Shown here: positions 2,025 to 44,422 of the stretch, one piece after another
Layout: the number at the start of each line of letters is the position of its first letter
Position numbering within the stretch: position 1 is the first letter of the stretch
From: Escherichia phage vB_EcoD_Pubbukkers
Sequence record: NC_073068.1
Reading direction: 5' to 3' (one strand)
DNA length: 44,476 bases
Notes under the pieces: model-generated
What the model was told of the DNA's origin: nothing
The model's database searches: none
What the model saw: the letters and a program-made list of their open reading frames with translations, nothing else
Position numbers and translations under genes: made by a program

Positions 2025-3545
2025 ATGACCGTTAACGTTGACAACCAGCACCCGCTCTATGCGCGCATCGCGCCAGAGTGGAAAATGATCCGCGACTGCG
2101 TAGCGGGGGAGCGCGCCGTGAAGGCGTGCGGCCCCTTGTACCTGCCACACCCCGCAAGCGGCGACACCACCGACCCGAAATCACGGGCACGGTATAAGGC
2201 GTATAAGCAACGTGCTGTCTTCCTGAACGCCACCGCCCGCACACTTAACGCGCTGTTAGGTGTCGCCTTCGCCAAACCGGTGAGTATGGACCTTTCCGGG
2301 GCAATGGCTGACCTGATTGATGACGTTGACGGCAGCGGTATGCCGCTGGCGCAACTCCTGCGCGGTGCTATGTCTGAAGTTCTGCAGTCAGGCCGTGCCG
2401 GGTTTATGGTCGACTACGACCGCCAGGCGCATTTTGACGAACTGGGTAACGTAGTACCGCAGACCGCCGCTGAAATGGCGGCACACCGCCCGCTTATCCG
2501 CCTGTATACGGCTGAACAGATCATTAACTGGCGGCAGACCCACGGGGTCGACACGCTAATCGTGCTGAAGGAAACGGACGAAATCAGCACCGAAGACCCG
2601 GACGACTTCGCAAACCACGAAGTAACGATCTGGACCGAGCTTCGCATGATTGCGGGTAAGGCCCACGCCCGCCGCTGGTTTTACAACGCTGACACGTCCG
2701 AGGTGCAGATGGACTTGCCGCGAGGCTTCACCCGCACCGACCTTGTACCATTGGTGGATGCCTCCGGTAATGCGCTAACTCAACTGCCATTTTGCTGGTG
2801 TGGCGCGGTGGACAACAACGCGACACCGGACGCCGCACCGCTGGCGGATATTGCGTCCATCAACATTAAGCACTACAACGCCGAAGCGGACGTCGCCGAG
2901 ATTGCGCACATCGTGGGCCAACCTACACTCATTGCGACTGGTCTGACCCAATCATGGGCGGACAAGAACCTGAAAGGAGGCATCGCGCTCGGGGCAACTA
3001 AGGGCGTTATCCTGGGCCAGAACATGGACGCCAAACTGCTTCAGGCGGAGGAGCGCAACTTGTCTGTTGCACTGTGTGAGCGCCGCGAATTGCAAATGGC
3101 TAAACTGGGCGCGGCCCTGGTCGAGAAGGGGACCGCACCTAAGACGGCAACCGAGGCGGCCTATGATGCACAGACTGATAACAGTATCCTGTCACTGATT
3201 GCCGGTAACGTCGAGAAGGCTTTCAACCGTGCGCTGCAAATCGTCAAGCTGTTCACGGGCGACACCGCAGATCAACGCGTAACGCTGAATAAGTTCTACA
3301 CCGAAATCACGGTTGACGCACAGCTTATGACCGCAATGATGGCGGGTGTGCAGACCGGTACGGTCCGTCTGGCGGACTTTATCAAGTGGATGATGGCCCA
3401 GGGCGTTATTGATGACTCGCAAACCGTCGAGCAGGTGGAAGACGAACTGCGAAATCAGAATCCATTGCCTCAAATGTCCCCGGATGCGGTAGAATCGACC
3501 GAAGAAGCCCCGGACGAGGTAGCGGACAATGGCGAAGACAATTAA
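2025..3545 (+). CDS. portal protein
   Basis: 506-aa ORF immediately after TerL and before a MuF-like gene; size and synteny typical of portal; acidic C-terminal tail. Confidence 0.75.
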   Translation: MTVNVDNQHPLYARIAPEWKMIRDCVAGERAVKACGPLYLPHPASGDTTDPKSRARYKAYKQRAVFLNATARTLNALLGVAFAKPVSMDLSGAMADLIDDVDGSGMPLAQLLRGAMSEVLQSGRAGFMVDYDRQAHFDELGNVVPQTAAEMAAHRPLIRLYTAEQIINWRQTHGVDTLIVLKETDEISTEDPDDFANHEVTIWTELRMIAGKAHARRWFYNADTSEVQMDLPRGFTRTDLVPLVDASGNALTQLPFCWCGAVDNNATPDAAPLADIASINIKHYNAEADVAEIAHIVGQPTLIATGLTQSWADKNLKGGIALGATKGVILGQNMDAKLLQAEERNLSVALCERRELQMAKLGAALVEKGTAPKTATEAAYDAQTDNSILSLIAGNVEKAFNRALQIVKLFTGDTADQRVTLNKFYTEITVDAQLMTAMMAGVQTGTVRLADFIKWMMAQGVIDDSQTVEQVEDELRNQNPLPQMSPDAVESTEEAPDEVADNGEDN

Positions 3546-16651: not shown

Positions 16652-17259
16652 CCACATTTAAATTGTACGGCGTCTTAGGACGTCGTTTTGGTAAAGTGCA
16701 TAAGCTGGACTGCTTCACACCGGGCGAGGGTATCACCGGCCTGTGCGTGAAGTTACCCGGCTTACAGGACTTTCTAATGTCGGCCCACCTGGACAACATG
16801 ATGTTCAAAGTGCGCAAGGGCAATCACACTCTGACCGGCTACGATGAGCTAGGCGAGTTCCACGGCAATCGCGTAGTGACCATCGCGCCGGTTATGACTG
16901 GTGCAAAAAGCGGACTGGGCCAATTGCTGGCGGGTGTAGCAATCGTGGTGGCGTCGTTCTATACCGGCGGGCTTGCGACTGCCGCTTTTGGAGCTTCAGC
17001 GGCGACCGCGGCCTCTATCGGCGCAGCGACGTTTTCGTTCGGGATGTCGATGGCGCTGGGCGGCGTTATGCAATTGCTGTCGCCACAACCGAAAGGATTG
17101 CAGACACGGCAGGACGTGGATAACAAAGCGTCGTATGCGTTCGGCGGCCCGGTAAACACGACCGCGCAAGGTACGGCGCTTGGTGTATTATGGGGCGAGC
17201 GTGAGATCGGCGGCGCTATTATTTCAGCCGGAATCGTAACCGAGGACTTGAACGAATGA
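16642..17259 (+). CDS. tail assembly protein I-like
   Basis: 205 aa between the K-like and J-like genes; Gly/Ala-rich hydrophobic C-terminal half; assigned by synteny. Confidence 0.65.
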   Translation: MAMTTFKLYGVLGRRFGKVHKLDCFTPGEGITGLCVKLPGLQDFLMSAHLDNMMFKVRKGNHTLTGYDELGEFHGNRVVTIAPVMTGAKSGLGQLLAGVAIVVASFYTGGLATAAFGASAATAASIGAATFSFGMSMALGGVMQLLSPQPKGLQTRQDVDNKASYAFGGPVNTTAQGTALGVLWGEREIGGAIISAGIVTEDLNE

Positions 17260-20200
17260 CGATTATCTACGACGTCACAGGGCATAAAGGCGGCGGCGGC
17301 AAACAGCACACCCCACAGGAGACGCCAGATAGCCTGCATTCGCTGGCTAAAATCCGCATCTTGCTTGCGCTGGGGGAAGGGGAATTCGAAAGTATTACCA
17401 GCGCCAGCGAATTGCGGCAGCGTGTTTACCTTGATGGAACGCCGATCCAGAACGCTGACTTGTCCGAAAACTTCCCTGGCGCGCGTGTGGAGTTCCGCCC
17501 CGGCACACAGCACCAGGATGTGATCCACGGATTTTCAGCGGTGGAAAGTGAGCAATCTGTCGGCGTAAAACTGGAAAACGGTACGCCGTGGGTACGCCAG
17601 ATTAACGATACCAGTCTGGACGCCGTTCGCATTCGCATCGGAATTCCGGCCCTGTACACTAACGAAGATAATGGCGACCTGGTTGGCGGACGCATTGACT
17701 ATAAGATCGTTGTGTATACGGATAACGCCGACCCGCGTGAGTTCAGATTCGCCGCCGTTGGTAAAACAATGTCGCTGTATGAGCGCGACCACCGCATCGA
17801 ATTACCGCCGAACGTGAATACCGGCTGGCGCGTGGAGGTGCACCGCATAACGGCAGACTCCACATCGGCGAAAGTGGTTAATGATATCCGGGTGCAGTCC
17901 ATCACTGAGATTATTGACGCCCGCCTGCGTTACCCGCTAACCGCGCTGTTGTTTGTGGAGTTCGACGCCAAAGCGTTCCAGAACATCCCGCGCGTGTCCA
18001 TCAAGTGCAAAGGTCGCAAAGTTCTAATACCGAACAACTACGACCCGATCAATCATACCTATTCCGGGGACTGGGACGGCACGTTTAAACGCGCATGGAC
18101 GGATAACCCTGCGTGGCACTGGTACGATATTTGTATTACTGAGCGCTTCGGCCTCGGTCGGCGTATCAAACCGCAAATGCTAAACCGATACGCGCTCTAC
18201 CAGATTGCGCAGCGCTGCGATCAGTTGGTCAGCGACGGCAACGGTGGTCGAGAAATCCGCTTTAAGAATGATATGTACATTCAGTCACAGACGGATGCCT
18301 GGACCGTGCTTAAGGATTTAGCCGCCATCTTCGCCGGAATGACCTGGTGGGGCAACCAGATGTTGAATATCGTCAGTGACCAACCGGTCGCAGCAGTGTC
18401 GCACACTATCACCAACGCCTCGGTTATTGATGGGCGCTTCGACTACGCGTCCGGTAGCCAGAAAACTCGGTACTCCACGTTCGCAGTAGCATACGGCAAC
18501 CCGAAGAACCACTATGAAGATGCTATCGCAACGGGGCAACGTGTCGAACTGGTACGCCGCCATAAGATTAACCGTCTCGATATTACGGCGATCGGCTGTA
18601 CGCGTGAATCTGAAGCGCAGCGTCGCGGGCACTGGGCGCTAATTTCCAACCAGCTTGACCAGCAAGTTAGCTTTAAAGTTGGCATGGAAGGGTTATTCTT
18701 TATTCCCGGTAGCGTAGTCGCGATCGCGGATACAAACATTTCTGGCGGTTTTGAGACGCGCGGCGGTCGACTGTTGTCGGACCCCGGAACTCGTACCGTG
18801 CTGAACACGGACAGCGAAATCACATTCCGCCCTGGCGATAAGTTCCTGGTACGCACCGATAGCGGTAATGTGGAGACTCGCGAGATCGCCAGCGTCAACG
18901 GCAACAAGGTAACGCTAAAAACCGCACTGGACGCCAACCCTATTCCTGACCAGCCGTTTTGCGTTGATGGCGACGATATCCAGTTGCAGAAATTCCGCAT
19001 CACCGACCTGGAGTATGACGACTCTACGAGCACTTTCTCGGTGCGCGGGATTGAGTACAACGATAGCAAGTATGATGCCGTTGATAATGGCGCGCGCCTT
19101 GATCCGGGTATCTTTACGCAAGTGCCTGACGGGGTAATGAAGGGGCCGGAATCCGTGACCATCACCCCGTCGCAGATTTCATCGCAAGGGCAGCTAATCA
19201 CCAACGTGGATATTGTATTCCCTCCGGTGAAGGATGCCGTGGTGTATGAAATCCAGTGGAGGCGTACCAGCCTTCAGAATATGGAAATCCAGTGGGGTAA
19301 CGACTGGGTGAATATCCCACGCACGGCGTCGAATGGGGCGCACATCCCTAACGTGTTCTCCGGTAACTACCAGGCACGCGTCCGCGCGATCGGTATGGGC
19401 GAGATTTCATCTCCGTGGGTGTCGTCCGCCATCACGCCGGTGGAAGGTCGTCTCGGTGGGCTTAACGCACCAATCATCACCAACGCTATTTCGGGCCTTC
19501 ACCAGATCTTGTGGAAGTGGAACCACAACAACGCCGCTACTGATATCTCGTACACCGAGCTTGAAGTGCGCAAGACCGGTGAGACTGAATGGAAATTCCT
19601 TACCAACGTCCCATATCCGGGGGCGGAGTATGCGCAAACATCGCTGGAGTTCGGAATTTACCAGCAGTTGCGCGCCCGTGTAGCGGATAAAATCGGCAAC
19701 CTGTCGGACTGGTCGGCCCCGTTTGAAGGGCAGGTGAGTGACAAAGTTGACGAGTACATGAAGGGGCTTGATGACGAGTTCTTGACTTCCGAGGATGGTA
19801 AACGCTTCCAGGAAGCAATCAACACGATCCCGCAGGGTATTTACGAGGCGATGCTCACCGACGCGCAGCAATTGTTCAACGCCCGCGCCGAGTACAAGGG
19901 TATTTATGCGGAAATCTCGGTCGCGTATAACGTGGCGGCGGACGCCCACAAGGCGGTCGCTCAACTGGAGACGTTGATCGGCACGCGACTTGATGACGCG
20001 GAAGCTGCGATCCACACGTTGCAGACCGCGCAGAGCACACAGGAACAAGCGTTCGCCCAGTACCAGCAAACTGTTGCCGCTAAGTTCGGGGAACAGGAAG
20101 CCGCCATCCAGCAGGTACAAACGGCAACCGCAGACGTGGCGGGAGCGCTGGCGGAATATAAGACCCAGGTCGCTACACAGTTCGGTCAGCAGTCCGCCGC

Positions 20201-20675
20201 TATCGAGCAGAAGATGACGTCCTCGTTTAACCACTCTGGTGGTAGCGCCACGTATAGCCTTAAGGCTGGCGTGACATATAACGGGACTTATTATGACGCC
20301 GGTATGCAGCTTTCAGTTGTTGCGGAAGGTGGCGCGGTTAAATCCCGCATCGCGTTCAAGGCGGACCAGTTCTACATCATGCACCCATCTAACGGGTCGC
20401 TTTCGTCCGCGTTTATTGTAGACGGCGGCGCGGTGTATATTGACACGGCACGCATCAAAGACGCGACTATCAACTTCGCGCAGATTACGGACACGTTGCA
20501 ATCGAATAACTACGACGGCTACTCGCGTGGTTGGCGTTTAGGGAAAGACGGAACGTTTATCAACCTGGGAACCGGTAACGGTGGCGGGATGAAACAGACA
20601 AACACGCAAATCAGCGTCAGGGACGGAAACGGCGTGCTCCGCGTGCAGATTGGTGAGATCACAGGTTATTGGTAA
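17256..20675 (+). CDS. central tail fibre / host specificity protein (lambda gpJ-like)
   Basis: 1139 aa, matching gpJ size and position after M/L/K/I-like genes; C-terminal region likely receptor-binding. Confidence 0.85.
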   Translation: MTIIYDVTGHKGGGGKQHTPQETPDSLHSLAKIRILLALGEGEFESITSASELRQRVYLDGTPIQNADLSENFPGARVEFRPGTQHQDVIHGFSAVESEQSVGVKLENGTPWVRQINDTSLDAVRIRIGIPALYTNEDNGDLVGGRIDYKIVVYTDNADPREFRFAAVGKTMSLYERDHRIELPPNVNTGWRVEVHRITADSTSAKVVNDIRVQSITEIIDARLRYPLTALLFVEFDAKAFQNIPRVSIKCKGRKVLIPNNYDPINHTYSGDWDGTFKRAWTDNPAWHWYDICITERFGLGRRIKPQMLNRYALYQIAQRCDQLVSDGNGGREIRFKNDMYIQSQTDAWTVLKDLAAIFAGMTWWGNQMLNIVSDQPVAAVSHTITNASVIDGRFDYASGSQKTRYSTFAVAYGNPKNHYEDAIATGQRVELVRRHKINRLDITAIGCTRESEAQRRGHWALISNQLDQQVSFKVGMEGLFFIPGSVVAIADTNISGGFETRGGRLLSDPGTRTVLNTDSEITFRPGDKFLVRTDSGNVETREIASVNGNKVTLKTALDANPIPDQPFCVDGDDIQLQKFRITDLEYDDSTSTFSVRGIEYNDSKYDAVDNGARLDPGIFTQVPDGVMKGPESVTITPSQISSQGQLITNVDIVFPPVKDAVVYEIQWRRTSLQNMEIQWGNDWVNIPRTASNGAHIPNVFSGNYQARVRAIGMGEISSPWVSSAITPVEGRLGGLNAPIITNAISGLHQILWKWNHNNAATDISYTELEVRKTGETEWKFLTNVPYPGAEYAQTSLEFGIYQQLRARVADKIGNLSDWSAPFEGQVSDKVDEYMKGLDDEFLTSEDGKRFQEAINTIPQGIYEAMLTDAQQLFNARAEYKGIYAEISVAYNVAADAHKAVAQLETLIGTRLDDAEAAIHTLQTAQSTQEQAFAQYQQTVAAKFGEQEAAIQQVQTATADVAGALAEYKTQVATQFGQQSAAIEQKMTSSFNHSGGSATYSLKAGVTYNGTYYDAGMQLSVVAEGGAVKSRIAFKADQFYIMHPSNGSLSSAFIVDGGAVYIDTARIKDATINFAQITDTLQSNNYDGYSRGWRLGKDGTFINLGTGNGGGMKQTNTQISVRDGNGVLRVQIGEITGYW

Positions 20676-20712
20676 CACAGGGGCTTTGGCCCCTTTCTTA
20701 GGGAGGTATAGC

Positions 20713-21015
20713 ATGGCTTTCGGTGTAGCAACATGGGACGCGCAAGGGCGTCCAAACAACTACGGGATCAAGCCCGTTTCGGTTGTCGGAATTATTAAAC
20801 TGGCACAAGGTCAAACATCAGGGGCGTGGTCATTCGATATTCCGTCAGGGATGAAAGTAGGTTTTGCGGTTACGCTGGACGTAGGTGGCACTACGGTCGG
20901 TCGGGCGATCCGCGCCAGCGGGAACACGATAACAGTATATGCGGCGAACAGCGTCGGTATTGGAAACTACCCCGCATCAGAATGTGAAGTAGTAGTTTTT
21001 GTGGAGAAAGCGTAA
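20713..21015 (+). CDS. hypothetical tail-associated protein
   Basis: 100 aa from ATG 20713 (MAFGVATWDAQG) with RBS GGGAGG; directly downstream of the J-like gene. Confidence 0.5.
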   Translation: MAFGVATWDAQGRPNNYGIKPVSVVGIIKLAQGQTSGAWSFDIPSGMKVGFAVTLDVGGTTVGRAIRASGNTITVYAANSVGIGNYPASECEVVVFVEKA

Positions 21016-21017
21016 AA

Positions 21018-21689
21018 ATGGCAAACTTCGGCGCGTTAATCGATAACAACAACGGCAACCCATTCGTCACGCCAAACTCAACGCCATTCGTGCTCTATGC
21101 TAAGGTGTCCGCAAATTCAGTTGACGCAGGTGCGGGTTATAAGACCGCGAGTGGCGCAGTGGATATCCCCGCGAACTATCCGGCGATGGTGTTCATGCGG
21201 TCTAATAACCGTTGTGTACTCGCAGCGTCCCGGTCAGGAAACAGGATTTTATTTAGCGGAAGCATTCAGGGGCGGAATAACCCACATTTTACCGTCACGG
21301 CGTATGTATTCGCGCGATTCCCACAGCCGCTGCCGAAATGGGGATTTGCTATTTGGGACGCCAGCGGGACTTGCATACTAACCAACGAGAGCAAGGTGCT
21401 CACCGATCTAGTCACTGTTGGCAGCTTCGGTAATAACGGCGGGATCAACATAGACCAGACGTTGCCGGGTAAGTACGCGGTGTCGCCAATGTTAATGGGG
21501 GCTACTCTAATCCGAATATTCGTGCAAGGACAGCCGCAAATAATCCAGATTTCGGCGGGCGCAGGCGCTTATGACAACGGAAGCGGCACTCGTATTAACG
21601 CAGTCGCAACGCAGGCGGGGTCTGGTAGCATCGCAGGATATCAAAACACCGGCGTTGCTCTGACTGCAATTAACGTTGATGGGATATGA
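21018..21689 (+). CDS. hypothetical tail-associated protein
   Basis: 223 aa; Gly/Asn/Ser-rich; shares a W-D-A-x-G segment with the preceding small protein (possible paralogue). Confidence 0.5.
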   Translation: MANFGALIDNNNGNPFVTPNSTPFVLYAKVSANSVDAGAGYKTASGAVDIPANYPAMVFMRSNNRCVLAASRSGNRILFSGSIQGRNNPHFTVTAYVFARFPQPLPKWGFAIWDASGTCILTNESKVLTDLVTVGSFGNNGGINIDQTLPGKYAVSPMLMGATLIRIFVQGQPQIIQISAGAGAYDNGSGTRINAVATQAGSGSIAGYQNTGVALTAINVDGI

Positions 21690-21707
21690 GTAAACCCCTT
21701 TCGGGGT

Positions 21708-21926
21708 TTACTTGCAGGTTGTGCTTTTGAAATGGTCAACTGACACATACTGGAAGTTGAACGGGTATCCCGCCCTTAGCATTTTATGCCCGGAGAAGTC
21801 CGCAACACCATACACAGGGACCACATAATCCATGCCGCTATTCTGGTATGTGGCGTCGCAGACTTTAGCGGGCATGTCGGCGCAACCGGACAAAAGAACC
21901 GCACAAATCATAATTAAAGTTTTCAT
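21708..21926 (-). CDS. small lipoprotein, candidate superinfection-exclusion protein (Cor/Llp-like)
   Basis: 72 aa from ATG 21926 (MKTLIMICAVLLSGCADMP) with lipobox LLSGC and RBS AGGGGATGA; on the opposite strand between tail genes and the side fibre gene. Confidence 0.6.
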   Translation of the reverse strand: MKTLIMICAVLLSGCADMPAKVCDATYQNSGMDYVVPVYGVADFSGHKMLRAGYPFNFQYVSVDHFKSTTCK

Positions 21927-22005
21927 GGTATCATCCCCTATATTTGGTTGAGTTTTAGTATTACACCGCTCAGCCAGGATTGCAACCAATTACGAGGATT
22001 TAGCT

Positions 22006-23577
22006 ATGGCAGCGGGTACGCTATCCGTAACGAACAATAGCAAGGCGGTAGTAGGGGTCGGCACAACGTTTACCTCGTTTAACGCTGGCGACTTCTTAAC
22101 GCTGGTGGTAGGACAAGTCCCCTACACCGTAGCAATCGCGTCCATTGAAAGCGAAACCGCGCTTACGCTGGTGCTGCCGTTCGACGGCCCAACGGCAACC
22201 GGCCTCGCGTGGGATGGCGTTAAGCGCGATACCATGTCACTGGCTACGATGGGTGTTACCGTCCAGGCACAGAAAGCACTACGCTTGATGATTGCAGATG
22301 AAAACAACTGGCGTGCAATCTTCGGCGACGCTGAAGAAATCACAGTGACGTTACCTAACGGGCAGGTTATGCAGGGCATGTCATGGGGCTATCTGTCACA
22401 GCTAATGAAGCAGATCGACCCTGTTGAGATGCGCAACCTGCAACAGCAAGCCGCCGCATCGGAAGCAGCCGCGCAGGGATTTCGCGATCAGGCCGAAGAA
22501 TGGGCGAAAAGCGTAAACCCCGACAACCTACTAACCAAATCCGGCAACCTAGCGGGGCTTGCGGACAAAGGCGCGTCGTGGGCTAACCTTATGCCGCCCG
22601 GACCGCTTCGCATAGGTGCGGACCCCGTAAACCACCTGGACGCTGCGACTAAAGGGTGGGTGTGGCGCGGTCTTGATGACGTGGGGCTTTGGGGCTTACG
22701 CAATAACTACGCTTCAGAACCCGCAGGGGGTGCAGAAGTATACGGCGGGCGCTTTGACTCCTCTATGAACGTCGCAGGGGCCGAAAAATATAGAATGTCG
22801 ATACAGCTTCAGGGCTTAAATAACGTAGACGCCTGGACCCGCTTGGCGACCGTTGACGCCAGCAGCATGGCTACCGAGGCGTCGTGGGACTTTAAATATG
22901 ATGGCAAGATTATTTTCAACAAAGGATTGTCGCCATCGTCCACCTCGGCGTCGCCAGGTAATACCTACGTAACCCTTGCGAATACATGGATGGGCGACCA
23001 ATATTCGGGACACGTCGGCTTTGTTGGAGGCGGGGCGGGGACGAGTGGTGGCGGGTGGCGTAACTTTATTTCGTTCGGCGCGCTGATCCACCCGCCCACC
23101 GGTAACTCGCACCCCCATGCTATGATTGCGCAGGTCTTTGATTATGATTTGGCGTCCGGTACACAGCCTAACGGCGATATCGTTCGAAACACTACATTCA
23201 ACCCCGAAGCATACGATATCACCTTCGGCAACAACTCAGGGACTGTTAACTATATTTTCGCAAAGTCCCCGGTATCCGATAGGGCGCTGAAGCATGATAT
23301 CGCCCGGATCGATACTCAAGTTGCGTACGATAACGTTATGACTATGGAGTACTCGTCCTTTGTTTATAACTACGACAAAAAAGAGACGGTTAGACGTGGT
23401 TTTATCGCGCAGCAGTTGGAAGAGATCGACCCGCAGTATGTCCGCAAGTACACCAACGCAACCGGTAAAGAGTTTCTGGCATTAGACGAAAACGTCCTAC
23501 TACTTGACCTTGTCGCGACTGTTCAGCATTTGGCGGCGAAGGTTGAGGCGTTAGAAAGTAAGTTAGCGGAGAAATAA
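22006..23577 (+). CDS. side tail fibre with C-terminal intramolecular chaperone (peptidase S74-like)
   Basis: 523 aa; C-terminal SDRALKHDIARIDTQVAYDNVMTMEYSSFVYNYD...RRGFIAQQLEEIDPQYV resembles the auto-cleaving chaperone domain of endosialidase/T5-type fibres. Confidence 0.75.
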   Translation: MAAGTLSVTNNSKAVVGVGTTFTSFNAGDFLTLVVGQVPYTVAIASIESETALTLVLPFDGPTATGLAWDGVKRDTMSLATMGVTVQAQKALRLMIADENNWRAIFGDAEEITVTLPNGQVMQGMSWGYLSQLMKQIDPVEMRNLQQQAAASEAAAQGFRDQAEEWAKSVNPDNLLTKSGNLAGLADKGASWANLMPPGPLRIGADPVNHLDAATKGWVWRGLDDVGLWGLRNNYASEPAGGAEVYGGRFDSSMNVAGAEKYRMSIQLQGLNNVDAWTRLATVDASSMATEASWDFKYDGKIIFNKGLSPSSTSASPGNTYVTLANTWMGDQYSGHVGFVGGGAGTSGGGWRNFISFGALIHPPTGNSHPHAMIAQVFDYDLASGTQPNGDIVRNTTFNPEAYDITFGNNSGTVNYIFAKSPVSDRALKHDIARIDTQVAYDNVMTMEYSSFVYNYDKKETVRRGFIAQQLEEIDPQYVRKYTNATGKEFLALDENVLLLDLVATVQHLAAKVEALESKLAEK

Positions 23578-23583
23578 GGATAA

Positions 23584-23608
23584 GGGGCCGTATGGCCCCT
23601 ATTTTTAG
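23584..23608. terminator. bidirectional rho-independent terminator
   Basis: AGGGGCC-gtat-GGCCCCT stem followed by ATTTTT; between the plus fibre gene end (23577) and the minus gene end (23605). Confidence 0.7.
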
Positions 23609-24180
23609 TTTGAGTTTTCCCAGTCCATTTTGCGCCGCACCAGCGGGCTTTCGTAATATTCCTTTCCTTCCACTTCCACCAAAGGCCAGTCGTTCACAAT
23701 CACGTATGGCTCCGCGATATCCTCAATCACGCCGTGCGCGCTTTGCGGCCCTAACGACACACCAACCAGGATAACACCGGCAACGCGACGGGTCAGATAT
23801 TCGCGAGCACAACGCGCCTCTACCAGCCCGCGACGGATGCCGCTGGTGGCTTTAACCTCGTAGGTCCAGACGGCATCGATCACATGCTCGCGGAAGTCGG
23901 GGCCGGACTTTACCTTGCGCTTGCCGACCATGATGATATCGCCGCGGTCAATGGTATTGGCGCTAAACAGGCCGGTACGCATAAGTAAGCCTTGCGGTAT
24001 GCAACTACGCCCGCCCGCCTGCCCTTCAAGGTACATGCCTGCAAACATTTCGCCCAGCACACCGACCAGTCGGCTTTGCTTGCACGCGTCAGACTTTAAG
24101 CGCCACTGATCAAACTCGATGCTTGCTATCATTGCCGCCAGGTGGAATTGTTTACCGGATATTTCATATTCGCCGTACAT
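23605..24180 (-). CDS. hypothetical protein
   Basis: 191-aa ORF at the distal end of the leftward operon; no motif recognised. Confidence 0.55.
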   Translation of the reverse strand: MYGEYEISGKQFHLAAMIASIEFDQWRLKSDACKQSRLVGVLGEMFAGMYLEGQAGGRSCIPQGLLMRTGLFSANTIDRGDIIMVGKRKVKSGPDFREHVIDAVWTYEVKATSGIRRGLVEARCAREYLTRRVAGVILVGVSLGPQSAHGVIEDIAEPYVIVNDWPLVEVEGKEYYESPLVRRKMDWENSN

Positions 24181-24777: not shown

Positions 24778-24839
24778 TATGTGGTCCTTTTTAGTTGGGG
24801 GCGGTATTGCCCCGACGCGTTAACTATAGTGCAACCAAC

Positions 24840-26736: not shown

Positions 26737-26772
26737 TCAATATAATGCAACCAATACGGTTACGCAACCAAT

Positions 26773-37129: not shown

Positions 37130-37159
37130 ATAATAGATTGGTTGCAGGATGGGTGTCAA
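37130..37159 (-). promoter_or_regulatory. sigma70-like promoter for the acidic-protein gene
   Basis: On the minus strand: -35 TTGACA (37159-37154), 18-bp spacer containing TGCAACCAAT, -10 TATTAT (37135-37130); a 7-bp inverted repeat CATCCTG/CAGGATG (37111-37117 and 37146-37152) brackets the -10. Confidence 0.5.
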
Positions 37160-37335: not shown

Positions 37336-37665
37336 ATGAATGTAAACGACGCAATCGAAATGTTAACGAAGACTGTTTGCAGTGAGACTAGCCGGTCCTG
37401 GGCTTATACCGATGCCGTTGGGGAGGTGTTATTTGAAATCGAACGACTGCGCAGTGTCGAAAAAGAATTACGCGCCAGGCTGGAATTGCTCAACGGTACG
37501 GCGGCCAGCAAGCTGCAAAAGCACAATGAAGAAATGGAAGAATACAAAAAGCAGGTTATCCGTTTGCGCGCCGAGGGCAAATCCTGGGCGATGATTGCCG
37601 AGTTGACCGGAATTAATCAGAGCACAGTGCGCTCCTGGGTACGCAATAATAAAACTTCTAAGTAA
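37336..37665 (+). CDS. HTH DNA-binding protein (putative transcriptional regulator)
   Basis: 109 aa; C-terminal helix-turn-helix-like GKSWAMIAELTGINQSTVRSWVR; first gene of the rightward arm; perfect -35 TTGACA at 37276-37281 upstream. Confidence 0.55.
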   Translation: MNVNDAIEMLTKTVCSETSRSWAYTDAVGEVLFEIERLRSVEKELRARLELLNGTAASKLQKHNEEMEEYKKQVIRLRAEGKSWAMIAELTGINQSTVRSWVRNNKTSK

Positions 37666-40263: not shown

Positions 40264-40475
40264 AATCCGGGATTGCATAACGCACGGCAACAAGATGCGG
40301 AGTGCGGTCGTCGATGAACTAGGCAACCAACGCGAGATGCATTATGCTGAGTGAAAAATTCAGTTTGCAGTTGCAGCAGATAGCGATCAACTTTTTCATG
40401 CGCGTGATTGATATTGGTTGCATTCGTCCTGCCAGGGTGTTAGATTGGTTGCATATCAAACGAAGGAGGGCATTC

Positions 40476-40781
40476 ATGAAGGCTTTAATCTGGAATTACA
40501 CATCAGCGGTCGCAGCGCTCTATGAAGCGAAGGCGCTGAACGGCAACGTAGACCGTGCGCGCCAGTTTGCGACACTGGCACACCAGTCAATCATGTGTGC
40601 GCTAGACGATATGGACGCCAGCATGGATGACCTGGGTCCGCTGCGTAAGGCAATCCATGAATACGCGCTGGCATTCTCCCGTGAGCGCCTGGCTTATCGC
40701 TTCGGTATTGGCGAGAAGGCAGTGACAAACGTAGCCAGGATTAAAGCCCAGCGTGAGCTATTCGCCCAGCTTGCGAAATAA
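40476..40781 (+). CDS. hypothetical protein
   Basis: 101 aa from ATG 40476 (MKALIWNYTS) with RBS AAGGAGGG; the ORF-track start at 40344 is rejected. Confidence 0.55.
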   Translation: MKALIWNYTSAVAALYEAKALNGNVDRARQFATLAHQSIMCALDDMDASMDDLGPLRKAIHEYALAFSRERLAYRFGIGEKAVTNVARIKAQRELFAQLAK

Positions 40782-40790
40782 GGGGCCAAA

Positions 40791-41066
40791 ATGGGGCGTA
40801 GACGAGCAAAACAGCTTTCGTGGCATATTCCCCTGCATTGCATACGAATATGGGCGGAGAATGCGACTGAGGGCGATTCTGTATTCTGGTGCTATCGCGA
40901 TGACGTGAAGCCACTGACGCAGACTCGCTACTTACACCAGTTCGCAGCACAACACGATTTCAGGGTGCGGACTTCCTTGAAACCAATGGGAATACGTATT
41001 ACATTACGCCGGAAGCCCGCCGTTGAGCGGGTAGGCAAACACTGGAGACTGCGCAAATGTTCTTAG
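40791..41066 (+). CDS. hypothetical protein
   Basis: 91-aa basic ORF with RBS AAGGGG. Confidence 0.45.
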   Translation: MGRRRAKQLSWHIPLHCIRIWAENATEGDSVFWCYRDDVKPLTQTRYLHQFAAQHDFRVRTSLKPMGIRITLRRKPAVERVGKHWRLRKCS

Positions 41067-41187
41067 ACGGAATATCGCAGGCGTTTATCGACCTGCATAT
41101 GTGCGTACTTGACTACGAACAAAACGGCATCGCTACGGTATGCGATGGCGACTATAAGACTGTTGACGAGATTGAGGAGACTGAGCA

Positions 41188-41730
41188 ATGAAATTACTAT
41201 TCCGCCGTAAGCACGATGGGCGCATCCTGAAGCCGATCCAGACCCTGGATTCCTACGTCCGCTTGCAAGACGCGGCAGGCAATCGGGTGTGGTGGGCGGT
41301 GAAAGACAAGCTGCCTGAAAACTTTGACGTACTCACACACGATATCGAGCGGGGCGATGTTCTGCGTAATATTCGCGACGGGCAATTGTGGGTCGTGGAG
41401 TATGTCGGACAGCACGCCTTGCGTATGCAGACCCGCAAGGGTGGCGTATCGGGCAACATGATTAGGGGAATGACGTACTTCGGGCTAATCCACTACGAGC
41501 GCGTTGGTCGCAAATACAGCCTTCGCGACCGCCAGCCGCATGAGCGCGCTACTTACGACGCGACCCAGGTGCAATCTAAAATTCGCCAGGCCACGCGTGA
41601 GATAGTCAATCGCTTTGATGCCGTGACGAACGCACAGCGCCATGCGCAGGAGTACGGTGTGGGATTCATCCGCGTCGAACAGGACGGCAGCATGAACGCT
41701 ATTGACCCGCGCTCGGTGATTCTGAAATGA
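41188..41730 (+). CDS. hypothetical protein
   Basis: 180-aa ORF; its ATG overlaps the stop of an upstream 44-codon ORF (41057-41191). Confidence 0.5.
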   Translation: MKLLFRRKHDGRILKPIQTLDSYVRLQDAAGNRVWWAVKDKLPENFDVLTHDIERGDVLRNIRDGQLWVVEYVGQHALRMQTRKGGVSGNMIRGMTYFGLIHYERVGRKYSLRDRQPHERATYDATQVQSKIRQATREIVNRFDAVTNAQRHAQEYGVGFIRVEQDGSMNAIDPRSVILK

Positions 41731-41955
41731 GTGCGACGATCCGTGATATGCTTCAGCACAACCGCTTTGAGATAGGCGGTCGGGTGTTTCGCAATTACTT
41801 CGTGGCGCGTGCATGGGCGCGCCATATTGGCAAACCGGAAGGGGCAATTCGATGCTATACGTCTTCGCGGTAGTATGTGGCGGTAGTCTGGTGGCCCTGG
41901 TGCTGTTGGCGTCGGCAAGTGGTCCATTTTCGATTAATTATGCAAGCGTGATATA

Positions 41956-41990
41956 GTCCCAGTGAGCTAAAACTTACTGGGACTTTTTTA
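41956..41990 (+). terminator. rho-independent terminator / RBS-occluding hairpin immediately upstream of the holin
   Basis: GTCCCAGTGAG-ctaaaa-CTTACTGGGAC stem followed by TTTTTT and then the holin ATG at 41990. Confidence 0.6.
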
Positions 41991-42280
41991 TGGATAAGCT
42001 AAACGAGTGGTTATTTGCCCTCGCATGTCTGGCAGGCGGCTTCGTAGGCGCACGCATTCACGGCGAGGCTACGAAAGGGCCGCTAAACTTCGTGTTATAT
42101 ATCGTAGTTGGCTTCCTGTGTGCCATCTTTGGTGCGCCAGCTATCGCCGAGTGGGCTGGCTTATCTGGCGAGCGCACTGTCGCCGGTTTGGGCTTCGTAA
42201 CTGCCATCTTCTGGATGCCAATAGCTGACCGGATCCGGGAGACAATTGCGTCGCTACACCTTCCGGGGGGCGCAAAATGA
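41990..42280 (+). CDS. holin (putative)
   Basis: 96 aa with three hydrophobic segments and a charged C-terminus; first gene of a three-gene cassette ending in a lysozyme. Confidence 0.6.
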   Translation: MDKLNEWLFALACLAGGFVGARIHGEATKGPLNFVLYIVVGFLCAIFGAPAIAEWAGLSGERTVAGLGFVTAIFWMPIADRIRETIASLHLPGGAK

Positions 42281-42522
42281 TTATCACCGTCCTGTTGTTT
42301 GTTATCATAGGGGCTTCGTCCCTGTTTAACGTGTATGCGCCGTCCGTTCAGGATGGCTTCTTCGGTCGGGTGTTATATCTGCTAACAGCAATGACCTGTA
42401 TTGTCGGGCTGTTGCAAACGGGAGACGTCTCTGATGCCACCTGGACCGCGTTAATCTGGCTGTTTGCATTGCGCACCCTGCGTAATGCTGTGTTGAATGG
42501 GGTAAAACATGCGATTCAGTGA
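42277..42522 (+). CDS. second holin-like membrane protein (holin or antiholin)
   Basis: 81 aa with two or three hydrophobic helices; start overlaps the previous stop; overlaps the endolysin start. Confidence 0.5.
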   Translation: MIITVLLFVIIGASSLFNVYAPSVQDGFFGRVLYLLTAMTCIVGLLQTGDVSDATWTALIWLFALRTLRNAVLNGVKHAIQ

Positions 42523-43000
42523 TAACGGTCTAAGATTTACGGCAGCATGGGAGGCTTTCAGCCCGGTGCCGTATTTCGCGACCAAGAAAGAGCAGGCCCG
42601 CGGCCTGTACACCTGGGGTTATGGGCACACTGGCACTAATCCGCCACGAAGCATTACCCGTGCGGAAGCGCTGGAACTGCTCAAGCGCGATGTGGCGTAT
42701 GCTGAGGACTGGGTGAACAAATACGCACATCCGAGCATTAACCAGGCGCAATTCGACGCGCTGGTGGATCTGGTAATCAACGCCGGTCCAGGTCCGATCG
42801 TCCCGGATGACGTCGCGACCGACTTTGATGATGCGGTGCGACTGGGCGACTGGGCGAAGGTGCGGGCTATACTGCCACAATTCCGCAAGCAAGGCGGTGT
42901 AGTGCTCAAGGGGCTTGTCCGTCGTGCAATCGGCAGGCAAGCGCTATTCGATGGTAAGCAGTGGGACGTTGCCGAGCGAATCGGTCGTAACGCTGCATAA
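42509..43000 (+). CDS. endolysin, phage lysozyme (GH24-like)
   Basis: 163 aa; N-terminal GLRFTAAWEAFSPVPY...GLYTWGYGHT matches the catalytic-Glu region and the Y-T-I-G-x-G-H core of T4-type lysozymes. Confidence 0.72.
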   Translation: MRFSDNGLRFTAAWEAFSPVPYFATKKEQARGLYTWGYGHTGTNPPRSITRAEALELLKRDVAYAEDWVNKYAHPSINQAQFDALVDLVINAGPGPIVPDDVATDFDDAVRLGDWAKVRAILPQFRKQGGVVLKGLVRRAIGRQALFDGKQWDVAERIGRNAA

Positions 43001-43201
43001 TACGAGGTGACACGATATGTTAAAAAGTATTCTTGATCATAATGCGGACGCGCTCGCCGCGCTGGCTAAAACCGAAGACCCTGGCGCACGCGCTATCATC
43101 GCGGACACTATCAGCCATGCAGGCGTCTTTGACGCGAAGCTGCCTAGCCCGCCGCCACAGGAAGAATCTGGCCCAGTGACGTAAACAATCAAGCCCGGTT
43201 A

Positions 43202-43227
43202 ATTCCGGGCTTTTTTATTTATTGCCC
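43202..43227 (+). terminator. rho-independent terminator
   Basis: AGCCCGG-ttaatt-CCGGGCT stem followed by TTTTTTATTT after the lysis cassette. Confidence 0.7.
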
Positions 43228-43279
43228 CAGTACCGTGGTATATTGCATCCAGGTCATCTCAATCTGGAAGTAAATTAAT

Positions 43280-44422
43280 ATGCACCCGCAAACTAAAATC
43301 ACCGACGAGCAATTGATCGCAGAATTGCAATCCGGCACTACCGCGAAAGAGATTGCGAAGAAGTACGGCCTTTCCCTACGAAATGTCTACATGCGCAAAG
43401 CCCGCCTGTCGAAGAAAGGTATTGGTCATGGTAACGATGCCGTAATCCGTAAGCGCGTTGCCGATGGCTTTGGCGTTAAGCGCGTATCCGCCCTGGTGCG
43501 CGGCAATGGTGAAGAGGTCATGTCGTGGGTTATCACTGAGCAGGACAAGGAGCGCCAGCTTGAAGCAATGCGCGCAGTGCTGGACGGCATGAACAGCGAA
43601 ATCACACCGGCAGCACCAGTTAGCGCCCCGCCAGTCCCGATCCAGGCGCTGGACTTGCTCAACCTGTACACCGTGTCTGACTTCCACCTGGGCATGTTGG
43701 CCTGGGGCGAGGAGACTGGCGAAGACTGGGATATGGCGATCGCCGAAGACCTGTTCTACCGCTGGTTTGTCGAAGCCTTCGCACGCGCCCCGGACGCAGG
43801 CACTGCCGTAATTAATATCCTCGGTGATATGGCCCACTTTGATAGCCTCGATGCTGTCACTCCGGCAAGTGGTCACATACTGGACGCCGACACCCGCTAC
43901 CAGAAACTGGTCCGATACATGATTCGCATGGTGCGCAACGTCGTCGAACTGGCGCTGCAAAAACACCACAAAGTCAAACTGCTAATCGTCCAGGGAAATC
44001 ATGACGAGTCGGGTATGATTTGGCTGGCTGAGATGTTCAATACTCTGTACGAGAACGAGCCGCGCGTCGATGTGGATACGTCCCCGGACGTCTACAAAAT
44101 GGTGCAGCACGGCAAGACCACGCTATTTTTCCACCACGGGCATAAAGCGCGCTTTGACGCTATCGAAACCGTCATGATTTCTAAATTCAGACAGGCTTTC
44201 GGGGCCAGTGAGTACAGCTACGCGCATGTCGGTCACTTGCACCACCAGAAGATTGTTGAATCCCGCAACATGATTGTTGAACAGCACCGGACCCTCGCAG
44301 CGAAAGACGCATATGCCAGCCGTGGTGGTTGGATGTCCGGTCGCAGTGCCAACGTAATCACCTATAGCGCCAACTACGGCGAAGTGGCGCGCTTAACCAT
44401 TAGCCCGGAAATGTTGAAGTAA
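43280..44422 (+). CDS. calcineurin-like metallophosphoesterase (SbcD/Mre11-like) with N-terminal HTH
   Basis: 380 aa; N-terminal HTH-like TAKEIAKKYGLSLRNVYMRK; phosphoesterase motifs DFHLG, GDMAHFD, GNHDE and HHGH; extended -10 TGgTATATT at 43246-43254 upstream. Confidence 0.65.
   Translation: MHPQTKITDEQLIAELQSGTTAKEIAKKYGLSLRNVYMRKARLSKKGIGHGNDAVIRKRVADGFGVKRVSALVRGNGEEVMSWVITEQDKERQLEAMRAVLDGMNSEITPAAPVSAPPVPIQALDLLNLYTVSDFHLGMLAWGEETGEDWDMAIAEDLFYRWFVEAFARAPDAGTAVINILGDMAHFDSLDAVTPASGHILDADTRYQKLVRYMIRMVRNVVELALQKHHKVKLLIVQGNHDESGMIWLAEMFNTLYENEPRVDVDTSPDVYKMVQHGKTTLFFHHGHKARFDAIETVMISKFRQAFGASEYSYAHVGHLHHQKIVESRNMIVEQHRTLAAKDAYASRGGWMSGRSANVITYSANYGEVARLTISPEMLK

Follow-up and report, generated by a model that had tools for sequence, protein, structure and literature searches.

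What does the short reverse-strand open reading frame among the tail genes of Escherichia phage vB_EcoD_Pubbukkers (NC_073068.1) encode, and if its product blocks a receptor, which one? The original prediction, made on the whole 44,476-nucleotide stretch (called the window here), had described a 72-amino-acid (aa) lipoprotein gene antiparallel to the tail genes and had proposed a receptor-blocking product of the Cor or Llp kind. The reading frame proves to be exactly as described, with a lipobox, a Shine-Dalgarno sequence and conservation in relatives. The proposed function is supported by protein family models (NCBIfam NF047972 and PHROG 1119), by invariant residues, by the surrounding gene cassette and by a predicted Llp-like fold. 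By analogy with better-known relatives, this gene, cor, very probably encodes an outer-membrane lipoprotein that inactivates FhuA, the most probable terminal receptor of the phage.

The phage itself belongs to the genus Dhillonvirus and is thus a virulent coliphage of the HK578/SO-1-like kind. The DNA around cor is 88–90% identical to that of many Dhillonviruses (e.g. McMelon, CEC_Kaz_2018, B2 and SSL-2009a), and the best DNA match for positions 20600–23700 is 90%. The features discussed below are collected in Table 1.

Table 1. Features of the cor locus and neighbouring genes (positions in the window)
Feature	Position	Strand	Remarks
J-like central tail fibre / tail tip protein gene	17256..20675	+	Annotated as J-like tail tip protein in relatives
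100-aa cassette gene	20713..21015	+	PHROG 557; starts in fact at ATG 20713, in line with the annotation of relatives
223-aa cassette gene	21018..21689	+	PHROG 425; homologues in T1, phi80, HK022 and N15-type phages
Hairpin GTAAACCCC-TTTC-GGGGTTTAC	21690..21711		9–11 bp, G+C-rich, conserved; between the convergent 223-aa gene and cor
cor	21708..21926	-	Coordinates include the stop codon; encodes a 72-aa prelipoprotein of the Cor superinfection-exclusion family
Mature Cor domain after the lipidated Cys	21711..21881	-	All-beta; conserved C23 and C71; RAGYPF motif
Signal peptide and lipobox MKTLIMICAVLLSGC	21882..21926	-	Cys15 codon at 21882–21884
Shine-Dalgarno AGGGGA	21934..21939	-	7 nt 5' of the cor ATG; kept in relatives
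Putative sigma-70 promoter of cor	21957..21985	-	TTGCAA (21980–21985), 17-nt spacer, AATACT (21957–21962)
Recurrent motif copy (TT)GCAACCAAT	21980..21990	+	Overlaps the cor -35 hexamer; 15 nt between its end and the lateral tail fibre ATG
Lateral tail fibre gene	22006..23577	+	C-terminal S74 chaperone domain (Pfam PF13884, PHROG 1980); divergent from cor

The cor gene and its family

The cor product, MKTLIMICAVLLSGC followed by ADMPAKVC...TTCK (full translation MKTLIMICAVLLSGCADMPAKVCDATYQNSGMDYVVPVYGVADFSGHKMLRAGYPFNFQYVSVDHFKSTTCK), has the lipobox L-S-G-C with the cysteine at residue 15 and alanine at position +2 (MKTLIMICAVLLSG/C-A-D), and the G-C pair is invariant in family alignments. 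In Lol sorting, alanine at +2 specifies the outer membrane as destination. A 93-aa version of the frame that starts at a TTG (21708–21989) was dropped, because every homologue begins at MKT and a Shine-Dalgarno sequence precedes the MKT ATG.

The frame is a real gene under purifying selection. Among seven Dhillonvirus alleles pN/pS is 0.05–0.27, with pS reaching 0.63, and by tblastn 243 phage records carry an intact cor frame. A homologue search with the single sequence gave only six near-identical proteins, and a search with the family profile was needed to retrieve 120 database clusters, for the majority of which the NCBI name is 'phage exclusion lipoprotein Cor' or 'cor protein'. A representative-library search gave 17 clusters, of which two, the long repeat proteins P0009 and P0014, were judged spurious. 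Against the NCBIfam equivalog NF047972, 'phage exclusion lipoprotein Cor', the protein scores 60.2 bits (cutoff 31) with residues 2–71 covered, and it matches PHROG 1119, 'Cor superinfection exclusion protein', over its full length (E = 2.2e-27); Pfam has no family for Cor, nor for the 100-aa and 223-aa cassette proteins. Residues invariant in comparison with the Cor proteins of T1, phi80 and HK022 are the lipobox G-C, C23, C71, R51–F56 (RAGYPF), V61–S62 and F66, and all of these beyond the lipobox are invariant or at least 90% conserved across 82 aligned sequences. The protein thus has the conserved core of the family, namely two further cysteines, a putative disulfide, and the (R/K)AGYPF motif.

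Judged by sequence, cor is a typical Cor family gene, of a known and annotated type and in its usual place. The matching gene in the records of relatives is already labelled 'Cor superinfection exclusion protein' or 'super-infection exclusion protein', so its novelty is low. The original prediction had overrated it in this respect, and the cassette to which the gene belongs has also been described in FhuA-targeting Dhillonviruses (PMC13164509).

The cassette and the probable receptor

The cor gene is the last of the J / 100-aa / 223-aa / cor cassette (17256–21926), and the gene order is the same in SSL-2009a, Teewinot, phi80, T1 and HK022. J matches the NCBIfam model lambda_TipJ with E = 1.4e-107 and 360.6 bits, a score far below the model's curated cutoff of 1950. 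The 223-aa gene product is regarded in the literature as a bona fide candidate receptor-binding protein (RBP). The cassette is present in T1, HK022, N15, ES18 and phi80, all FhuA-dependent (PMC13164509, citing Wietzorrek et al. 2006), and is reported to be confined to FhuA phages, including the FhuA-targeting Drexlerviridae and Dhillonvirus members of the BASEL collection (PMC13164509).

Two side observations on the layout may be recorded here. The orientation of cor differs with lifestyle. In virulent T1, Dhillonvirus and Hanrivervirus it runs against the tail genes, and in temperate phi80 and HK022 it runs in their direction. Between the J stop codon and the 100-aa gene, at 20676–20712, lies a hairpin rich in G+C, AGGGGCTTTGGCCCCT, with a T-rich stretch behind it, and this hairpin is kept in all five Dhillonviruses compared, whichever cassette is present.

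Membership in the Cor family does not by itself fix the receptor, since Cor-like proteins accompany BtuB use in some T5-like phages, the BtuB-dependent Markadamsvirinae (PMC13164509). Closer comparison within the genus is more informative. The Cor protein is 95.8% identical to those of Teewinot and GeorgBuechner (Bas16), 88.9% to that of JLBYU60 and 84.7–86.1% to those of KarlBarth (Bas17) and PaulFeyerabend (Bas15). For the 100-aa and 223-aa proteins, identity is 94% and 96% with PaulFeyerabend and only 71% and 53% with Teewinot. Teewinot and JLBYU60 depend on FhuA by experiment (PMC10373560), as do Bas15, Bas16 and Bas17 (PMC8594841, S5 table, BASEL), so that both cassette allele groups include phages experimentally shown to be FhuA-dependent.

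The Dhillonviruses that use other receptors have different genes at this position. Oekolampad (Bas18), an LptD phage, has a reverse-strand RBP gene and a 73-aa lipoprotein gene there. PTXU06, which is reported to be BtuB-dependent (PMC10373560), has three reverse-strand genes, including one for an 89-aa lipoprotein. The mature lipoproteins of both the LptD and the BtuB types are unrelated in sequence to Cor. The sequence identity of the present cassette with those of Dhillonviruses that depend on FhuA by experiment points to this receptor and away from BtuB and LptD, and these comparisons make FhuA by far the most likely target.

We also note that the FhuA-type Dhillonviruses carry two alleles of the candidate RBP genes (53% identity for the 223-aa protein and 71% for the 100-aa protein), which are reassorted relative to the cor alleles. 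The present phage has 100-aa and 223-aa genes of the Bas15/SSL-2009a type and a cor gene of the Teewinot/Bas16 type, and therefore combines RBP-candidate and cor alleles of different groups.

A junction at the lipobox cysteine

The boundary between the cassette and the rest of the genome lies inside the lipoprotein gene. The segment 21882–22005 (reverse strand), comprising promoter region, leader and signal peptide, is near-identical DNA in Dhillonviruses with three unrelated mature lipoprotein domains. The signal peptide and lipobox MKTLIMICAVLLSGC are encoded by the present phage, SSL-2009a and Teewinot (Cor type), by gp26 of Oekolampad (LptD type) and by gp37 of PTXU06. Near-identity runs from the start of the lateral fibre gene through the intergenic region to the lipobox codon irrespective of the cassette, and similarity among these Dhillonviruses ends 0–2 codons past the lipobox cysteine. 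As promoter, leader and signal peptide are common to three unrelated receptor-specific lipoproteins, the junction falls at the lipobox cysteine. A 163-nt query (21878–22040) that takes in the codons of the signal peptide, the intergenic region and 35 nt at the start of the fibre gene matches 134 phage records. By type of mature domain, the Cor type is found in 75 records at 76% identity or more, the LptD type in 64 at 80% or more, and the PTXU06 type in five at 90% or more.

The other junction lies within J. In the LptD type it is about 55 codons before the end of the gene; the Oekolampad sequence departs at about 20511, matches to J in LptD-type phages reach no further than query position 3256, and the C-terminal approximately 55 codons of J co-vary with the cassette type. 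The same arrangement on the lipoprotein side is seen in two Hanriverviruses, as Bas07 (FhuA, Cor type) and Bas06 (BtuB type) have the upstream region and signal peptide in common up to the lipobox.

These patterns lead us to favour, with some reserve, the idea that small siphoviruses swap a receptor cassette by recombination with its right junction inside the exclusion-lipoprotein gene, at the lipobox cysteine. Promoter, 5' leader and signal peptide would then belong to the backbone, and only the mature, receptor-matched domain would travel with the RBP genes. If this is true, a single pair of crossovers changes the entry receptor and the matching block together and leaves expression and export signals undisturbed. 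The junction also suggests a design rule for re-targeting, namely to exchange the whole segment that begins about 55 codons short of the J terminus and runs to the lipobox codon. It is the only element of the cor analysis that is even mildly novel. We did not find a junction at the level of the lipobox stated in the literature examined, and the words 'signal peptide' and 'lipoprotein' are absent from the main text of the BASEL paper (PMC8594841), but it may be known.

Putative promoter, recurrent motif and hairpin

A promoter-like element upstream of cor and a terminator-like hairpin beyond its end were both part of the original prediction. Consensus scans list neither of them, and they were therefore judged by conservation and folding. 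The promoter-like element is present (TTGCAA-17-AATACT), and its -10 hexamer is preceded by TG-T, that is, an extended -10. The window contains no other match of this kind, and five Dhillonviruses keep the element, with a spacer that varies in PTXU06; T1 has TTGCAA-17-TACAAT at the corresponding place upstream of its cor. On the other hand, it reaches only 8 of 12 in the consensus scan, under the threshold of 9.

The hairpin is likewise present and folds at -19/-17.9 kcal/mol (z = -3.1 for the plus and -4.8 for the minus strand). Its third stem pair shows compensatory changes, being A-T here, G-C in SSL-2009a and T1, and T-A in Teewinot. It includes the cor stop codon and abuts the stop of the convergent 223-aa gene. 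What it does not have is a U-tract on either strand, which is why it is missing from the terminator scan output. It is probably a bidirectional terminator or an RNA-stabilising stem.

The recurrent motif that had been noticed within the promoter-like element is borne out by counting, as GCAACCAA occurs 18 times in the window against 1.36 expected, and the copy at 21982–21989 overlaps the cor -35 hexamer. Looked at across the window, GCAACCAA(T) is about 13-fold over-represented and often paired, including an inverted pair at 24831/24850. The sites are 5867, 5880, 13169, 16518, 21982, 24831, 24850(-), 26747, 26764, 29721, 34237(-), 34253(-), 37145(-), 40014(-), 40049(-), 40323, 40421(-) and 40452(-). 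Copies often lie inside or just 3' of sigma-70-like hexamers, such as TTGACA-18-TATTAT at 37145 and TATAAT-GCAACCAAT at 26747, and upstream of the lipoprotein gene of the Hanriverviruses Bas06 and Bas07 a copy closely follows a TATAGT hexamer. With this distribution the motif resembles a start-site element or an operator bound by a phage regulator. A 109-aa protein encoded at 37336–37665 (forward strand; PHROG 9366, 'transposase'), with weak matches to HTH DNA-binding proteins, adjoins the divergent promoter region that has the motif at 37145, and is a possible candidate for a regulator that binds it.

Predicted structure and proposed mode of action

We know of no structure of Cor with FhuA. 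The AF2 model of Cor has a pLDDT of 87, and of all PDB folds it comes closest to the FhuA-bound form of Llp, which also gives the best Foldseek TM-scores, 0.60/0.57; in this comparison the model has the Llp fold. In sequence the relationship is much less visible. A phmmer search of Cor against all PDB chains at E ≤ 10 returned no Llp, only chance matches to hepatitis E capsid domains (E about 0.7), and the identity between Llp and Cor has been given as about 20% (PMC9586334). The Llp authors expect Cor to act likewise (PMC9586334), models of Cor and Llp have a common fold (bioRxiv 10.64898/2026.03.26.714494), and an AF3 model docks a T1-like Cor on periplasmic FhuA (PMC13164509). In the literature as it is cited in PMC13164509 and bioRxiv 10.64898/2026.03.26.714494, expression of the Cor proteins of phi80, N15, HK022 and mEp167 excludes FhuA-dependent phages and abolishes FhuA functions.

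We infer the mode of action of Cor from that of Llp. The cor gene would have a promoter of its own, TTGCAA-17-TGTAATACT, read by host RNA polymerase, with a transcript running away from the lateral fibre gene and towards the tail genes, and the shared hairpin would end or stabilise both convergent transcripts. Sec would export the precursor, which would receive its lipid at Cys15 and be cut by signal peptidase II, and a disulfide between C23 and C71 probably locks the 57-residue beta domain. [quoted passage not shown] Adsorption of FhuA-dependent phages (this phage, T1, T5 and phi80) to the infected cell, and to the debris left after lysis, would then fail, and ferrichrome uptake would be lost once Cor blocks FhuA.

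Alternative explanations

Two other readings concern what the frame is. That it might be a chance frame or a decayed, functionless gene is suggested by its shortness, its position on the strand opposite to the surrounding tail genes and the lack of a Pfam match. Conservation and selection rule this out, however, since pN/pS is low, the frame is intact in so many records, the Shine-Dalgarno sequence and start are conserved and the family invariants are kept, and we give it practically no weight. A role in lysis as an outer-membrane o-spanin (Rz1-like) lipoprotein is suggested by small size, lipobox and outer-membrane sorting signal, all of them typical of o-spanins as well. The holins and endolysin of this phage are encoded 20 kb from cor, at 41990–43000 (two holins at 41990–42522, endolysin at 42509–43000), and this makes such a role unlikely. 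In addition there is no adjacent i-spanin gene, the neighbours of cor being tail genes, and the protein matches Cor models only and is not proline-rich (3 Pro in 58 mature residues). An o-spanin is thus highly improbable. As an aside on the lysis region, no spanin was identified among the frames scanned in 40344–44422, and a 55-aa frame directly after the endolysin gene (43017–43184, forward strand; PHROG 11068) has neither signal peptide nor lipobox.

The remaining readings accept a blocking lipoprotein and differ in its target or its benefit. Cor might act indirectly or on another receptor, via OmpA, OmpC and the like, or by blocking another TonB-dependent transporter such as BtuB. The Cor-like proteins of the BtuB-dependent Markadamsvirinae (PMC13164509) speak for this, and the use of FhuA by this particular phage is something that we infer. 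Yet Cor and the cassette genes have 94–96% identity with their counterparts in phages whose need for FhuA has been shown, the lipoproteins of BtuB-type and LptD-type Dhillonviruses are of unrelated sequence, and the best structural match is to the FhuA-bound state of Llp, so another target appears quite unlikely. The benefit is a more even matter. The blockade of FhuA could be the same and yet have been selected because it spares progeny virions irreversible adsorption to FhuA in debris or vesicles after lysis, and not for superinfection exclusion. The window has no sign of lysogeny near cor and the genus is treated as virulent; for virulent phages the literature stresses the debris-adsorption role at least as much as exclusion proper (PMC12685063, PMC13164509); and cor is antiparallel in virulent T1 and the Dhillonviruses, in contrast to the co-directional moron of temperate phi80 and HK022. 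Against this, the sequence holds nothing that separates the two benefits, and a sigma-70-type promoter of its own would permit early expression, which fits either role. Progeny protection as the selected benefit is a serious possibility, if somewhat short of an even chance, and it is compatible with the main explanation, that Cor inactivates FhuA.

What the locus means

As an annotation the result has little weight, and it confirms a standard cassette for FhuA entry and blocking in this phage. With that cassette present, the terminal receptor (FhuA) and the spectrum of cross-exclusion (T1, T5 and phi80-like phages) should be predictable from the sequence. Such prediction is useful for assembling phage cocktails or picking production strains that are resistant. 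Behind it stands the general question of how a 6-kDa periplasmic lipoprotein shuts a TonB-dependent transporter from the inside, for which the present cor allele is one more test case. To our knowledge Llp alone has a solved structure for a transporter block of this kind.

Comparison with known exclusion lipoproteins

The nearest well-known counterpart among virulent phages is Cor of the FhuA-dependent phage T1 (Drexlerviridae), a member of the same protein family. T1 has the same cassette of J, an approximately 100-aa gene, an approximately 225-aa gene and cor, with cor antiparallel to the tail genes, a conserved hairpin between the convergent genes and its own TTGCAA-17-nt cor promoter. The T1 protein is, however, only 45–47% identical to the present Cor and has another signal peptide, and the divergent neighbour of cor is a recombination gene in T1 and the lateral tail fibre gene here.

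The experimentally characterised Cor proteins of phi80, HK022, N15 and mEp167, all temperate FhuA phages, belong to the same NCBIfam equivalog. Those of phi80 and HK022 keep the lipobox, the two cysteines, RAGYPF and the C-terminal TTC(K), and their genes lie in the same cassette after J. They differ in that identity to the temperate-phage proteins is 42–44% and that the mature N-terminus is three residues longer in phi80 and HK022. The temperate-phage genes are also co-directional with the tail genes and expressed as prophage morons, whereas here the gene is antiparallel and the phage virulent.

Llp of T5 (PDB 8A60, 7QJF) is more distant. It has no sequence match to Cor at E ≤ 10, is partnered with a different RBP (pb5) and comes from a different phage family.

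The LptD-specific exclusion lipoproteins Rtp45 and Oekolampad gp26 (PDB 9RPS) have mature domains that are unrelated in sequence to Cor; no homology between the mature domains was detected, their tblastn families are disjoint within Dhillonvirus, and they are absent among the best 50–60 of about 650 fold matches of the Cor model. Their target is LptDE, and they are co-transcribed with their RBP on the reverse strand. In the Dhillonviruses they nevertheless occupy the same locus and strand as cor, Oekolampad gp26 has the promoter region, leader and signal peptide MKTLIMICAVLLSGCA in common with cor, and the logic is the same as that of Cor, with a periplasmic lipoprotein that disables the receptor.
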